Shown here piece by piece: positions 33,752 through 39,445 of a stretch of DNA of 64,000 nucleotides. The DNA comes from Dehalococcoidia bacterium (GTDB taxonomy: Bacteria > Chloroflexota > Dehalococcoidia > Lucifugimonadales > GCA-2712585). Positions within the stretch are counted from its first letter, which is position 1. Every line of letters begins with the position of its first letter. Where the stretch lies: the NCBI GenBank assembly GCA_965238215.1, contig OZ250180.1:1765524-1829523 (forward strand), written 5' to 3'. The position numbers and the translations under genes are program-made. The notes below the pieces were generated by a model, which was not told where the DNA came from, did not search any database, and saw nothing but the letters and a program-made list of their open reading frames with translations.

Positions 33752-34675
33752 ATGTCCCTAGAACTGTGCCTAGAGGCCATCCGGTCTCCCGAGGAAACCC
33801 CGGCCAACTCCCTTCTTTACCATCTGAGCGACCTGTCCGCTTCGGATGTGGTGGACTTCGCCTCTGCGTGGAGGAACGCTCCGCCTAACGGGAAAGTTCC
33901 TATTGTGGACAGGCTCATTAGCTTGAGTCAGGACAGGACGGAGTTGGACTTCAGCGCCGTCTTCCGTCGATGCCTCCGGGACGAAAACGAAGAAGTGCGT
34001 CGGCGGGCCATTGAAGGGTTGTGGGAAAACGAGGAACGGCGGCTCATTTCGCCCCTATGCAAGCTTCTGGCCCACGACCCTTCGCCGGCGGTTCGGGCCG
34101 CCGCGGCAGTAGGCTTGGGCAAGTTCGCCGAGCTTGCCCAGCTGGACAAACTGCTCCGGAAGGACGGCCTTCGCATCGAGGCTTCCCTGCTTGCCGTGCT
34201 GCAAAACAATACGGAGGATATGACGGTGCGCCGCCGCGCCTTGGAGTCCGTGGCCGTCTTTAATTCTCCCAAAGTGGACGCGTTCATCCGGTGGTTCTAC
34301 GACAGCGATGACCTGACATTGAAGGGCAGCGCCCTCTACGCCATGGGCCGGACCGGTGAAACTCGCTGGCTGGAATGTCTGGTGCGGGAAACCCGGAGTC
34401 CCAGCCCGACCCTGCGATTCGAGGCGGCCAACGCCTGCGGTCAGCTGGAGGAGGAGGCCGTCGTTCCCCACCTGATACCACTCATGGAGGACGAGGACCT
34501 GCAGGTGCAGCTCGCCTCCATCAGAGCCGTGGGAGCCATCGGAGGCTCATTGGCAAAGAAGGCCCTGCGTCGGTGCATCAAGGAGGGGGACGGGGCCGTG
34601 GAGGACGCGGCCCGGGAGTCGCTGGAAACGGTGGACGCCATGGTGGACGTTTACAGCTTCAACTACCTCCGGTGA
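33752..34675 (+). CDS. HEAT-repeat protein
   Basis: Repeated ...VRRRAIEGL..., DPSPAVRAAAAVGLG and SPSPTLRFEAANACG helical repeats. Confidence 0.75.
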   Translation: MSLELCLEAIRSPEETPANSLLYHLSDLSASDVVDFASAWRNAPPNGKVPIVDRLISLSQDRTELDFSAVFRRCLRDENEEVRRRAIEGLWENEERRLISPLCKLLAHDPSPAVRAAAAVGLGKFAELAQLDKLLRKDGLRIEASLLAVLQNNTEDMTVRRRALESVAVFNSPKVDAFIRWFYDSDDLTLKGSALYAMGRTGETRWLECLVRETRSPSPTLRFEAANACGQLEEEAVVPHLIPLMEDEDLQVQLASIRAVGAIGGSLAKKALRRCIKEGDGAVEDAARESLETVDAMVDVYSFNYLR

Positions 34676-34701
34676 GGGTTGGGGTTTCGGCCAACCTGGC
34701 T

Positions 34702-35142
34702 CTACCTGGTGCTATATTCGCCGATCCAGTGCAAGTTTCCAATGGTTGGGCTAGCTATTCGGTGGAACCTCCGGTCTGCGGTCCACAACTCACAGCCAAA
34801 CTCCTCCGCAAGAGCAACGTAATGCGCGTCGTAGACCGCCCCCTGGTTAAGCCTGCTCGCCAATTCTATCGCCCTTACGTGAAGATTCGGGCTATGATGA
34901 AACTGTAGCCGAGACCCAAGAAGGCGCGTTATCATGAGCGCGCCTTCACTGATGCTGAACTCGCCACGAAGTACCCGCCTATGAAGGACATTGGCCACCT
35001 CGAATGGCATTAGAAACGGTGCTATTCGGGTAACGTCTTGTGCGACCCAGGATTCCAAAAGGGCGTGGGCTTTGTCTGAGTCCTCCTCCTCGACCAGCCA
35101 CTTGACTGCCAGACTTGCATCGATAACGACAAATCCGCTCAC
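34702..35142 (-). CDS. vapC: PIN-domain toxin VapC
   Basis: VVIDASLAVKWL N-terminal Asp and later acidic residues. 4-nt overlap with the upstream antitoxin. Confidence 0.85.
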   Translation of the reverse strand: MSGFVVIDASLAVKWLVEEEDSDKAHALLESWVAQDVTRIAPFLMPFEVANVLHRRVLRGEFSISEGALMITRLLGSRLQFHHSPNLHVRAIELASRLNQGAVYDAHYVALAEEFGCELWTADRRFHRIASPTIGNLHWIGEYSTR

Positions 35143-35441
35143 GCGCGGCCCTCTATTTGGGCATCCCTAATCCGGCGGGCCTCTCTGATCAACTCTGCGG
35201 AGTCGCCTGGCAATCTCTTGCCCTTGAAAATCTTCATGCGCAGCTCTGCAAACATTTCGTGGTCCGGCTTGCGGGATAAAAGTCCGGGCCTCCCGTTGGC
35301 CTCATCCTTGGTCAACTCTTTCTCGATGACCGTCTGGCAGTATCCACGTACGCTGAGTCCCTTGAAATCGGCAACGACCTTCAGCCTTTGTTGAAGGTCG
35401 GGATCCAAGTCCAGGGTAAGCTTAATCTTTTTGTCTTGCAT
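35139..35441 (-). CDS. vapB: ribbon-helix-helix antitoxin VapB
   Basis: KIKLTLDLDPDLQQRLKVVADFKGLSVRGYCQTVIEKEL RHH pattern. Coupled to the PIN gene. Confidence 0.7.
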   Translation of the reverse strand: MQDKKIKLTLDLDPDLQQRLKVVADFKGLSVRGYCQTVIEKELTKDEANGRPGLLSRKPDHEMFAELRMKIFKGKRLPGDSAELIREARRIRDAQIEGRA

Positions 35442-35525
35442 GGCCTATGGCTCTCAAGGTAGTCAGCGGCATTTAACTCTATGGGATATGCGGAAATGCG
35501 TCAATGCGCGCTGGATGTGGAGGGG

Positions 35526-36686: not shown

Positions 36687-37325
36687 TCAGTTGGCGGTGA
36701 CTTCCACCCTAAGGCTAAGGCCCACGGCCCTGAGGGCCTTCTGCACCAGGTTCATGTGGGAGCGGTGGTCCGGATTTGTGAGCTTGCGCACAGCGGACTC
36801 GCTAACGCCCAGCCTCTGGGCCAACCCAACCTTGGTTATGCGCTGTTTCTTCATGGCCGAGTAGAGGGCGAGTTTGGCGGCGATGACCGGCGGCACCGGA
36901 ACCGATACCTGACCGTCTGTCGCGGTACCGGGAGTCGGGATGTCCCACTTCTCGTGGACGTATCCGGCAAGGGCTACGGCGAGGGCATCCTCCGCCAGCG
37001 CCAGCGCCTCATCGCGGTCACTACCGCCAGTGATTGCCTCGGGCACGTCAGGGAAAGTGGCGACAACCCCTCCGTCTTCGTTGGGGGTCAACTGGCATGG
37101 ATAGGCGTAAATCATGGTCCGGAACTCCCTCCGGTCGATGTTCAACTGACGCAGCATGGCGGCCAACATGCCCTTCCCCAGTTCGCCGCGCTTCACTGTG
37201 GTGAACCGGCTGCCTAGGTAGACCCTGCCATGATTGCCCTTGCCATGTGCTGGGTCAAAGCGGAATGCTTGTCCTGTCCTGCGGGCGTAGCCTCGTGCGC
37301 GTCTTATGAACTCGCGGCTGGTCAT
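36687..37325 (-). CDS. HicA toxin - HicB antitoxin encoded as one continuous ORF
   Basis: Residues 1-70 are HicA-like (GKGNHGRVYLGSRFTTVKRGELGKGMLAAMLRQLNI). Residues 71-212 are HicB-like (MIYAYPCQLTPNEDGGVVATFPDVPEAITGGSDRDEAL...) plus a C-terminal XRE-type HTH. There is no stop between them. An internal GGAGGGAG SD precedes ATG 37115. Confidence 0.8.
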   Translation of the reverse strand: MTSREFIRRARGYARRTGQAFRFDPAHGKGNHGRVYLGSRFTTVKRGELGKGMLAAMLRQLNIDRREFRTMIYAYPCQLTPNEDGGVVATFPDVPEAITGGSDRDEALALAEDALAVALAGYVHEKWDIPTPGTATDGQVSVPVPPVIAAKLALYSAMKKQRITKVGLAQRLGVSESAVRKLTNPDHRSHMNLVQKALRAVGLSLRVEVTAN

Positions 37326-37334
37326 GGGGTATCA

Positions 37335-37352
37335 TCGCACCTTATAGTGCGA
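37335..37352. promoter_or_regulatory. inverted repeat TCGCAC-n6-GTGCGA around a TATAAG box, 10 nt upstream of the hicAB start
   Basis: Read directly. It is a possible HicB-HTH operator overlapping a -10-like hexamer, which would give a near-leaderless mRNA. Confidence 0.3.
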
Positions 37353-37416
37353 ACGGCAAATTGAGAGATGAGCAATGCTCGTGTAATATCGGGGTTCCCT
37401 GTTGTCAATGCCATTG

Positions 37417-37445: not shown

Positions 37446-37498
37446 GAGCAAACATCGTTCCAGCTATAATGAACACCACCACTGCAGGAGAGAAAATC

Positions 37499-38005
37499 AT
37501 GGAGCAGGCCGAAACTGTCCTTCACCCCCAGGCTATAATCTCGGAACTCAAGAAGAACGGCATCACCCACGTTGTGTGGCTTCCCGACAGCGAGACCAAC
37601 TTCATGTACGATCAGTTGTTGGCGGAACCCTCCCTGAAGTTGGTTCCCGTTTCCAGGGAGGGAGAGACCATGGCCATCGCCGCCGGCCTCTGGGTAGGCG
37701 GCAAGAAGCCCGTGGCCCTCATTCAAAACACGGGCATCTTCGAATCGGGCGACTCCATCCGCGGCTTGGGTCTCGACGTGGACCAGCCCCTGGTAATGCT
37801 GGTGGGTTATCGAGGCTGGGACCGGCACGGCATCAGCCGCGACTCCGCCGCCAAGTACACGGAGCACATCATCCACGCTTGGGGCATCAACTACTACCTG
37901 GTGGAGACGGACGATGATGCCGACCGCATCTCCCTGGCCATGAACGAGGCCGAGCGGGACACCAAGCCCGTGGCTGTACTGGTCGGCACTGAATTCGGCG
38001 CTTAG
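37499..38005 (+). CDS. comD: sulfopyruvate/phosphonopyruvate decarboxylase alpha subunit-like (TPP enzyme, PYR domain)
   Basis: ITHVVWLPDSE...VSREGETMAIAAGLW...ALIQNTG pattern. GCAGGAGAG SD. Confidence 0.75.
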   Translation: MEQAETVLHPQAIISELKKNGITHVVWLPDSETNFMYDQLLAEPSLKLVPVSREGETMAIAAGLWVGGKKPVALIQNTGIFESGDSIRGLGLDVDQPLVMLVGYRGWDRHGISRDSAAKYTEHIIHAWGINYYLVETDDDADRISLAMNEAERDTKPVAVLVGTEFGA

Positions 38006-38085
38006 GAATTTTTCGGGCCTGAATTATCACCCTCTTTGGGAGAAAACGCAGGTTTGGGAAGTATTCGGCCCGTAGGAGAAAAAGA

Positions 38086-38673
38086 ATGATAGATAATCTG
38101 GAAGCCTGCCGGGTCATTGAGCAGAACAGGAACAACGCCATCGTGGTCACTACCATGGGCGCCGGTAACCCGCGCTTCGGCTGGCCCGTGGTCTCCCAAG
38201 ACGAGGCTCTGGACGTGCCTGTCGGCGGCGCGATGGGCAAGGCGTCCTCCTTCGCCCTCGGTCTCGCCCTCGCTCAGCCCGACCGCAATGTCCTCATCCT
38301 CGATGGGGACGGCAGTCTGGTAATGAACCTGGGCACCCTTACCACCATCAGCGAGACGGCGCCGTCCAACCTCTATCATTTCGTCTTCGAAAACGGATGT
38401 TACGCCGTCACCGGCGGCCAGCCCATCCCCGCCGATGGCAAGGTGAGCTTCAAGGAGATGGCGGCGGGAGCCGGCTACGCCGCCGCCTACGAATTCGACG
38501 ATCTGGAAGATCTGGCAAGCGGCATAGGGGATATTCTCCAGAAGCAGGGGCCTATCATGGTTAACCTGAAGATAATTCCCGAGATTGAGAACAGCCCAAT
38601 TAACCTGCGCCCCAGGCCCAAGCGAAACACTTACGGGGCGGTGCAGGAACTCCGGCAGGCCCTGTCCGAATAG
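38086..38673 (+). CDS. comE: sulfopyruvate/phosphonopyruvate decarboxylase beta subunit-like (TPP-binding PP domain)
   Basis: GAMGKASSFALGLALA and LILDGDGSLVMNLGTL (GDG...N TPP/Mg motif). Confidence 0.75.
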   Translation: MIDNLEACRVIEQNRNNAIVVTTMGAGNPRFGWPVVSQDEALDVPVGGAMGKASSFALGLALAQPDRNVLILDGDGSLVMNLGTLTTISETAPSNLYHFVFENGCYAVTGGQPIPADGKVSFKEMAAGAGYAAAYEFDDLEDLASGIGDILQKQGPIMVNLKIIPEIENSPINLRPRPKRNTYGAVQELRQALSE

Positions 38674-38687
38674 GCGGCCCCGCCCCA

Positions 38688-38882
38688 ATGCTCAAGTCCA
38701 CGCTGACCGCCGTGTTCGCCCCCCTGCTGGGTATGCTGACCATGGGCGGCGGTTTCTATCTTCTCTACCTTGCCTTCCTCGACGGACGGCCCCTCCCCGG
38801 CTTCGGCGGCGGCATTCTCATCTTCCTTGGCGCATGGCTGATGGCGCGGGCCCGCCGCGCTCCCGAACGTCCAATCCCTTGA
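38688..38882 (+). CDS. small 2-TM membrane protein (hypothetical)
   Basis: 64 aa with two hydrophobic helices. Its stop overlaps the next start (TTGA). No clear SD. Confidence 0.4.
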   Translation: MLKSTLTAVFAPLLGMLTMGGGFYLLYLAFLDGRPLPGFGGGILIFLGAWLMARARRAPERPIP

Positions 38883-39445
38883 TACCCGCTCCTGAAGCTG
38901 CCCGCCTGATTCATGGCCGTCGGCGAGACGCCGTCGTCGTATCAACCTCGACCGCCCTGCGCCACTGGAGCGCCGTTTCAAATCGCAGGGAGCTGGACGT
39001 GGACATGACCGACTGCCAGGACAAGGCCGCCGATGTCGCACTGGGCATTTCCCTTGCCAGGCCCGAAGCCAAGGTGCTCATCCTGGACACAGACGCCGCC
39101 CTCCGCACCAACCCCGGCGCCCTTCTCACCACCGCCGCCTCCGCGCCGCCCAACCTGGTGCATTTTCTCTTGGAAGACGCCGGCTACCGCTCCACCGGCG
39201 GGTCCCCCATTCCCGGCATCAGCGACACGAACTTTGCTGCCCTGGCGGACGAGGCGGGTTATTCGTCGGTGCACCGGATAGATGACCTCGAAGACCTGGC
39301 CCTATCCCTGGAAGACATTCTTTCGGAGAGAGGCCCCGTCTTCGTTTCCATAAAGGTCATCCATCACACCGACCCTCCCCCCTATCCCGCACGTACCCTG
39401 GCCGAATCCCTGGCCGAAGTGCAGAAGGCCCTCGCCTCCCGCTAG
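38879..39445 (+). CDS. ComE-like paralogue with a degenerate TPP-binding motif
   Basis: Aligns with 38086..38673 along its whole length, but GDGS is replaced by TDAA (LILDTDAALRTNPGAL) and GAMGKAS by TDCQDKA. TTG 38879 chosen within ORF 38585..39445. Confidence 0.6.
   Translation: MIPAPEAARLIHGRRRDAVVVSTSTALRHWSAVSNRRELDVDMTDCQDKAADVALGISLARPEAKVLILDTDAALRTNPGALLTTAASAPPNLVHFLLEDAGYRSTGGSPIPGISDTNFAALADEAGYSSVHRIDDLEDLALSLEDILSERGPVFVSIKVIHHTDPPPYPARTLAESLAEVQKALASR

Follow-up and report, generated by a model that had tools for sequence, protein, structure and literature searches.

A HicA–HicB fusion in a Dehalococcoidia genome, very probably derived from a two-gene hicAB operon by loss of a stop codon

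In type II toxin–antitoxin systems, the labile antitoxin is degraded and the stable toxin is freed. A toxin and an antitoxin encoded as one uninterrupted reading frame raise the question of how, or whether, the toxin could ever be released. The original prediction posed this question for an ORF in the 64,000-nt stretch of Dehalococcoidia DNA analyzed here (hereafter the window), in which a HicA-like toxin runs straight into a HicB-like antitoxin, and it treated the fusion as a departure from the canonical two-gene hicAB.

As an architecture, the fused form was already in the literature. HicA contexts have been sorted into 14 classes (Gerdes, 2024, mBio 15:e03293-23; PMC10865869), among which Class 3 is hicAB with an HTH-bearing HicB, and Class 11 is a monocistronic fusion of HicA, HicB and a DNA-binding domain (DBD) of the HTH or RHH type. 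Class 11 is known from AlphaFold2 models, and its examples include KPW96986.1 (RHH) and WP_243550782.1 (HTH; Gerdes, 2024; PMC10865869). For the window, the question becomes whether the ORF is a dedicated single-chain system or a two-gene operon that lost its stop.

The fused reading frame and its two modules

Both the ORF list and the sequence gave a single 212-aa frame without a stop at the junction, where the codons read ...CGG AGG GAG TTC CGG ACC ATG ATT TAC..., so that the claim of an uninterrupted HicA–HicB ORF held. The frame was composed of a HicA module (residues 1–68), an R69–T70 linker and a HicB module with a C-terminal HTH (residues 71–212; Table 1). The original prediction had recognized the HicA-like part correctly and had extended it to residue 70. 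The canonical HicA stops at F68, and R69 and T70 of the fusion correspond to the old stop codon and the spacer codon and are no part of HicA.

The native hicB start codon is found at 37115–37113. A Shine–Dalgarno (SD) sequence had been placed about 10 nt upstream of this internal ATG, and the spacing proved to be 9 nt. Both the SD and the ATG were unaltered in the window, and the motif (A/G)(A/G)GGA(G/C)TT(C/T) before the stop was kept in nearly all related loci. The proposal that the locus could make free HicB as well as the fusion is plausible, as one ORF here retains the native internal signals of hicB. An exact look-up of the 212-aa protein in the public collection returned no record, and no further samples with this allele were found.

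Table 1. Features of the fused hicAB locus, in positions of the window.
Feature	Coordinates	Strand	Basis
Putative -35 box TTGCCG (TTGCCA or TTGTCA in the clade consensus), 17 nt upstream of -10	37354..37359	(-)	Cross-locus conservation
Perfect palindrome TCGCAC-TATAAG-GTGCGA, putative HicB operator, overlapping promoter spacer and -10 box	37335..37352	(-)	Clade conservation
Putative -10 box GATGAT (clade consensus GATAAT), 5 nt from hicA ATG	37331..37336	(-)	Cross-locus conservation
212-aa HicA-RT-HicB fusion ORF, counting the TGA stop at 36687-36689	36687..37325	(-)	ORF list, sequence
HicA toxin module, codons 1-68, full length of the clade's standalone HicA	37122..37325	(-)	Homologues, PF07927, AlphaFold2, Foldseek
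G28-K29-G30-N31-H32 turn, putative catalytic His32 and essential Gly30	37230..37244	(-)	Alignment, B. pseudomallei HicA data
hicB Shine–Dalgarno GGAGGGAG, within HicA codons 65-67, 9 nt upstream of hicB ATG	37125..37132	(-)	Sequence
Junction: CGG (R69) at the ancestral hicA TGA position, ACC (T70) as the one-codon spacer	37116..37121	(-)	87-locus comparison
HicB antitoxin module, 142 codons from the native ATG	36690..37115	(-)	PDB HicB matches, standalone homologues, dN/dS
N-terminal toxin-binding domain of HicB (residues 71 to ~135), with a partial RNase H-like fold	36921..37115	(-)	Pfam, E. coli HicB alignment, AlphaFold2
HicB C-terminal HTH DNA-binding domain, residues ~155-205	36711..36863	(-)	Weak HTH_3, E. 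coli HicB alignment

The HicA module had 118 homologues, nearly all of which were standalone proteins of 68 aa with the C-terminus ...REF. In profile searches, 30 of 48 family members matched the Pfam family HicA_toxin (PF07927) at E ≤ 0.01 (best 1.4e-6), no other family was matched, and the module of the window itself reached 19.6 bits (E = 1e-3), the gathering score being 27. The homologue P0231 had a precomputed PF07927 match and was called HicA by JGI. HicA of this clade is divergent, and most of its members fell under the Pfam gathering score.

AlphaFold2, run on the HicA family alignment, gave a confident model (pLDDT 92.3) of an alpha-beta-beta-beta-alpha, dsRBD-like fold (helix 3–17, strands 21–24, 32–37 and 40–45, helix 51–60). 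In a Foldseek search of this model against the PDB, the best matches were 5yrz_B (prob 1.00, TM 0.65/0.75), 4p78_C and 6hpb_C, which are HicA chains in the solved structures of three HicAB complexes; generic dsRBDs came next. A profile search of the PDB with the clean HicA alignment found no HicA structure. By sequence and modeled fold together, residues 1–68 are HicA-like.

The turn G30-N31-H32 sat between predicted beta strands 1 and 2. Among 79 distinct HicA sequences, G30 was present in all 79 and H32 in 97%, and position 31 was Ser in 78 (99%) and Cys in one, which makes the Asn of the window unique. In B. pseudomallei HicA, the equivalent G22 and H24 are required for toxicity, and S23A stays toxic (PMC3969222). 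The S31N exchange was considered as an inactivating change and was rejected on the basis of that equivalent substitution. Otherwise the module appeared intact. It was full-length with an ATG start, and it kept F21, G28, K29, H32, L58 and Q60, which did not vary in any of the alignments, as well as the nearly invariant D24, G30 and G33.

From M71 onward, the protein matched the E. coli HicB structures in a phmmer search of the PDB (6u0i_A, E = 2.4e-19, query residues 71–206; 6hpb_B, E = 1e-18, query residues 74–206), and these matches covered the HTH. Pfam HicB_lk_antitox was found over residues 75–134 at 22.9–24.2 bits, under its threshold of 27. The HTH region (residues 155–205) gave a weak Pfam HTH_3 match and weak NCBIfam matches of the HipB/Y4mF type. 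Almost all of the best 120 homologues were standalone proteins of 142 aa, with identities up to 94%; these homologues carried HicB-like_2 (PF15970), and some were named HicB by their sources. The dN/dS of hicB against the relatives of the window was ~0.15, which indicated purifying selection. By these matches, residues 71–212 are a genuine HicB with its HTH at the C-terminus, as had been claimed.

An AlphaFold2 model of the whole fusion reached a pLDDT of 71.6 and a pTM of 0.59, with residues 51–71 below 50, values too uncertain for a statement on the docking of HicA onto HicB in cis over so short a linker. The HicB N-terminal domain in that model had a pLDDT of 79–90.

Promoter and operator of hicA

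The promoter and the operator were identified through conservation across loci. The clade promoter consisted of a -35 box, a 17-nt spacer, a -10 box and a start codon 6 nt further on, with TCGCAC-N6-GTGCGA lying within the spacer and overlapping the -10 box. The half-site GTGCGA was found in 65 of 76 distinct upstream regions, and the palindrome was perfect in 30 and had one mismatch in 26. The -10 box was GATAAT in 38 of 65 loci, and the window's GATGAT was a unique variant. In 57 loci the start codon followed the -10 box after 6 nt, and six loci, of which the window is one, had 5 nt there.

The promoter of the window scored 8/12, which is the clade median. A generic promoter scan, which needs 9/12, reported no promoter for hicA, and the palindrome, with arms of 6 nt, was too short for an inverted-repeat search set to at least 8. 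Autoregulation is known for Class 3/4 hicAB (Gerdes, 2024, mBio; PMC10865869). By analogy, we infer that the hicA promoter is autoregulated by HicB. With the hicA ATG only 5 nt away from the -10 box, the hicA mRNA is probably leaderless or nearly so, and the translation of hicB would be driven by its SD. The regulatory region looks functional, and therefore the fusion ORF is probably expressed.

Stop codons and the fate of hicA in related loci

A HicA alignment recovered 130 loci from one-per-species genomes and JGI metagenomes, and six more came from protein look-ups. The clade that includes the window consisted mostly of metagenome-assembled genomes of Chloroflexota, Dehalococcoidia and Caldilineaceae, with a few from Binatia and Acidimicrobiia. 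Its layout was nearly invariant, ...(A/G)GG GAG TTC / TGA / NCC / ATG..., with hicA and hicB in one frame; distant relatives (identity ≤55%) had other spacers and frames. As to whether orthologous loci are fused or have a stop and a start, two genes were usual, separated by TGA and one codon before the ATG, in a common frame.

A census was made of the 87 distinct loci in which hicA and hicB share the frame and are 6 nt apart. The stop, TGA or TAA followed by one codon and ATG, was kept in 80 loci and was absent from seven. The codons in its place were CGG in the window, CGA in L013, CAA in L054, CAG in L099, TCA in L071 and CAA in both L003 and L004. Where the stop was kept, hicA was intact in 74 loci and broken in six (five lineages). 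Where the stop was lost, hicA was intact in two loci, the window and L013, and broken in five (four lineages). L054 and L099 had internal stops in hicA; L071 had lost GKGSH by deletion and had a stop and a truncated hicB; L003 and L004 had a frameshift in hicA. Thus, hicA was broken in four of the six stop-less lineages. With L003/L004 and L005/L014 each collapsed to one lineage, stop loss and a broken hicA were strongly associated (Fisher odds ratio ~30, p = 8e-4), an association that fits either order of the two events, stop loss before the death of hicA or after it.

A third intact fusion, L002/P0002 (211 aa, 62% identical), came from a sub-group with a 3-nt spacer. The nearest neighbors of the window and of L013 all carried TGA, and each of the three intact fusions was isolated among neighbors that carry stops. 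This indicated that the intact fusions arose independently. Among 1.84 billion representatives, an exhaustive HMMER search detected 3478 relatives, which were overwhelmingly HicB-only, and the few representatives spanning the junction were mostly visibly degenerate. Among the surveyed loci, lineage-wide maintenance of the fused state, as in CapRel-SJ46 or EzeT, was not seen, and there was no fused clade.

Four loci (L005, L014, L001, and L006) shared the neighborhood of the window, namely split TPP-enzyme genes, hicAB and phosphofructokinase (PFK), at ~93–95% nucleotide identity. L005 (long-read) and L014 (Illumina SPAdes) had in common an additional A (+1) in hicA codons 7–8, which truncates HicA, and they retained TGA GCC. 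In L001 and L006, unrelated DNA took the place of hicA and its promoter (window ~37129–37404), up to the hicB SD. The hicB gene was intact in all four. The comparison reads as loss of hicA by three different routes at this one chromosomal site, with hicB retained.

The CGG of the window differed from L001 (TGA ACC) by two substitutions, one T-to-C and one A-to-G, and the window differed from L005 (TGA GCC) at three positions within 4 nt (37121, 37119, and 37118). Two substitutions in the old stop suggest that the fused state persisted for some time without further lesions in hicA. That the true genome has TGA and an ordinary two-gene hicAB, CGG being an artefact of sequencing or assembly, would agree with the absence of the exact protein from the public collection and with the low-coverage long-read origin of some related contigs, but it is very unlikely, because the change consists of two base substitutions and not of a homopolymer indel, and because sense codons recur at the stop position in independent assemblies from different technologies, such as L004 (SPAdes) and L013.

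Between the window and L005, dS was 0.02 in hicA and 0.30 in hicB. A recombination breakpoint at the junction was considered and set aside, as the divergence of hicA in a 100-nt profile lay in the same range as that of the flanking genes. It is hicB and the intergenic regions that have diverged further in this pair.

Stop loss, tethering and the known fused systems

The ORF is very probably a stop-loss derivative of a canonical hicAB operon. The simplest path of the substitution would be TGA to CGA to CGG. Because hicA and hicB were already in one frame, a substitution in the stop would have joined them at once. Transcription would start from the conserved promoter under the palindromic operator. 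Ribosomes entering at the hicA ATG would make HicA-Arg-Thr-HicB of 212 aa, those entering at the unaltered internal SD and ATG would make free HicB, and the coupling of termination and reinitiation at TGA-NNN-ATG would be lost. Each HicA would be covalently bound to an antitoxin/repressor moiety. Being linked in this way, HicA could neither outlive nor outnumber HicB, and the RNase would therefore most likely be permanently neutralized. The locus would act as a hicB repressor gene with a disarmed toxin domain, and fusion would be one route of hicA loss beside frameshift, nonsense mutation and deletion, with hicB kept.

On balance, we favor the explanation that this is a sporadic stop-loss Class 3 hicAB, in which the toxin is most likely tethered and neutralized or is at an early stage of decay. 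We infer that both products are expressed, that neutralization takes place in cis and that the fusion is degenerative and not adaptive. The idea of a dedicated toxin release, for example by proteolysis, found no support in the compared loci: the change is a substitution in a stop codon, the intact fusions are isolated, stop loss is tied to a broken hicA, and the nearest relatives at the chromosomal site of the window lost hicA by frameshift or deletion.

A functional single-chain toxin–antitoxin protein, that is, a genuine Class 11 member, is still conceivable, given an otherwise intact HicA, a perfect palindrome and a typical promoter score. HicB would then inhibit HicA in cis, as in CapRel-SJ46 or EzeT, until some trigger activated the toxin, for instance a phage protein or a protease acting on the HicB part or on the linker, and free HicB from the internal start would provide repression and buffering. 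We consider this unlikely. The architecture is that of the published Class 11, but no clade of fused orthologues accompanies it and the intact fusions stand alone among two-gene relatives. The Gly30/His32 turn, the other (nearly) invariant HicA residues, the promoter and the operator are all kept, whereas stop loss is strongly enriched where hicA is dead and the window's nearest relatives lost hicA by other means. That the fused state is viable is implied by at least two further independent intact fusions (L013 and L002), and the two-step codon change implies that it lasted a while; however, the linker is the old stop codon plus one spacer codon, and no evolved linker was seen. In its narrower form, a working and newly arisen single-chain HicAB, whose HicA is kept inactive in cis and is released or activated by a trigger, for example protease cleavage near the R-T junction or a phage factor that displaces the HicB domain, with free HicB as repressor and buffer, this is quite doubtful. 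If it were true, the clade would show the conversion of Class 3 into Class 11 by a single point mutation.

Alternatively, the fusion may be a neutral and very recent polymorphism, with HicA fully active and controlled in trans by an excess of free HicB, so that the locus would behave as a near-normal hicAB. Unaltered hicB translation signals and an otherwise intact HicA would suit such a state, and hicA, having no SD and being probably leaderless, is likely translated less than hicB. However, a tied HicA would not be freed by selective degradation of the antitoxin, which makes normal toxin–antitoxin behavior hard to retain, and a codon two positions away from TGA speaks against a very recent single event. 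We hold this to be distinctly improbable. It overlaps with the favored stop-loss explanation, and the main difference is whether the tethered HicA is still active.

By domain architecture, the ORF belongs to Class 11; by descent, under the favored explanation, it would be a Class 3 operon that differs in one codon. Like the Class 3 system of E. coli K-12 (HicAB; 6HPB, 6U0I), it has a small dsRBD-like HicA with Gly-x-His followed by HicB-HTH, the HicB N-terminal domain is partially RNase H-like, and a palindromic operator lies in the promoter; all close relatives of the window are two-gene operons, as in Class 3. Unlike Class 3, the window has CGG in place of the hicA stop, and its cistrons are joined. 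Further differences are that HicA of its clade is divergent, that the two genes are in a common frame and 6 nt apart, and that hicA is apparently leaderless. With Class 11 (HTH subclass) it shares HicA, the HicB RNase H-like domain and a C-terminal DBD in one polypeptide, a likeness judged by architecture. In contrast to Class 11, the fusion in the window is traceable to the loss of one stop codon from an operon that is canonical in other respects, it retains the internal start signals of hicB, so that its coding potential is not strictly monocistronic, and it forms no fused lineage.

CapRel-SJ46 and EzeT have been proposed as a functional analogy for fused HicAB (Gerdes, 2024; PMC10865869). 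As in the window, a toxin and a neutralizing domain are there in one polypeptide. The families are unrelated, and their activities are tRNA pyrophosphorylation and that of a kinase, compared with the HicA RNase of the window. CapRel-SJ46 and EzeT are established and conserved single-chain systems with experimental support. In contrast, this locus gave no sign of trigger sensing, and the pattern of its evolution suggests decay.

Taken alone, the locus matters little, as fused proteins of this kind have been catalogued before and its toxin is most likely disarmed. What the compared loci contribute is a path from Class 3 to Class 11 by one mutation in an in-frame clade, together with the link of that step to the decay of hicA. 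In this Chloroflexota-centered clade, a fused toxin–antitoxin protein is one point mutation away, and fusions recur, mostly beside the decay of the toxin gene. The two-gene form, the intact fusion and the decayed fusion would make a natural trio for the question of tethering. These observations suggest that some database entries of the Class 11 type may be passing intermediates of stop loss and not dedicated systems.

Genes flanking hicAB

The hicAB locus of the window adjoins a thiamine-pyrophosphate (TPP) enzyme that is encoded in separate ORFs. This split-subunit layout was kept in the syntenic relatives L001 and L005, in both of which the gene at the position of the 286-aa ORF of the window has a second TPP_enzyme_C domain. 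About 1.2 kb downstream of hicAB, a further toxin-antitoxin-like gene pair was found between the phosphofructokinase gene (PFK) and a HEAT-repeat gene. It comprises a gene for a VapC-like PIN-domain protein and a preceding small ORF, which had no Pfam match and whose 3′ end overlaps the start of the PIN-domain gene by 4 nt. The segment holding this pair had no alignment to L005 or L001, and therefore it looks like a variable insertion at this position.

Features observed in the window and in related loci
Feature	Locus	Position (strand)	Length	Remark
Split TPP enzyme	Window	37469-39445 (+)		
N-terminal TPP-binding domain ORF	Window	within 37469-39445 (+)	178 aa	PF02776
C-terminal TPP-binding domain ORF	Window	within 37469-39445 (+)	195 aa	PF02775
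ORF after the TPP-domain ORFs	Window	38585-39445 (+)	286 aa	
-10 box to hicA start region	Window	37326-37336 (-)		
hicA	Window	37122-37325 (-)		
hicB	Window	36687-37115 (-)		
Segment unaligned to L005 and L001	Window	~34672-35525		
Toxin-antitoxin-like pair	Window	34702-35441 (-)		
PIN-domain protein, VapC-like	Window	within 34702-35441 (-)	146 aa	PF01850, E = 3e-10
Small ORF preceding PIN-domain gene	Window	within 34702-35441 (-)	100 aa	
DNA in place of hicA and promoter	L001	~1994-2987	~1 kb	
tRNA_anti-like OB-fold protein	L001		139 aa	first-listed ORF of the replacement DNA
Hydrophobic protein	L001		116 aa	other ORF of the replacement DNA
DNA in place of hicA and promoter	L006	upstream of 1045	~1 kb	
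Additional hicAB pair	L003	1778-2502		88-aa HicA, 152-aa HicB

Start and end of the hicAB reading frames

In ~65 related loci, the conserved -10 box ends just 5-7 nt before the start codon of hicA, and this spacing implies that the predicted hicA mRNAs are leaderless. The start codon was ATG in 36 loci and GTG in 28; in several otherwise intact loci, codon 1 was ATC, ATA, ATT or AAG. [quoted passage not shown]

Replacement, divergence and duplication of modules

In L001 and the syntenic relative L006, other DNA stands in place of hicA and its promoter. The boundary of the replacement falls exactly at the hicB SD, and the remaining sequence reads ...GGAGTTC TGA ACC ATG. Between the window and L005, the synonymous divergence was ~0.30 for hicB and ~0.02 for hicA; per 100 nt, hicB and the intergenic stretches differed at 7-24 positions, compared with 2-7 positions in the metabolic genes that flank the locus. 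The higher divergence of hicB could reflect either its faster evolution or its allelic exchange. In L003, the decayed hicAB copy that lacks the stop is preceded, at a distance of ~500 bp upstream, by an additional, apparently intact hicAB pair whose genes overlap by 1 nt. The two copies in L003 form a tandem of hicAB modules in which one is degenerating.
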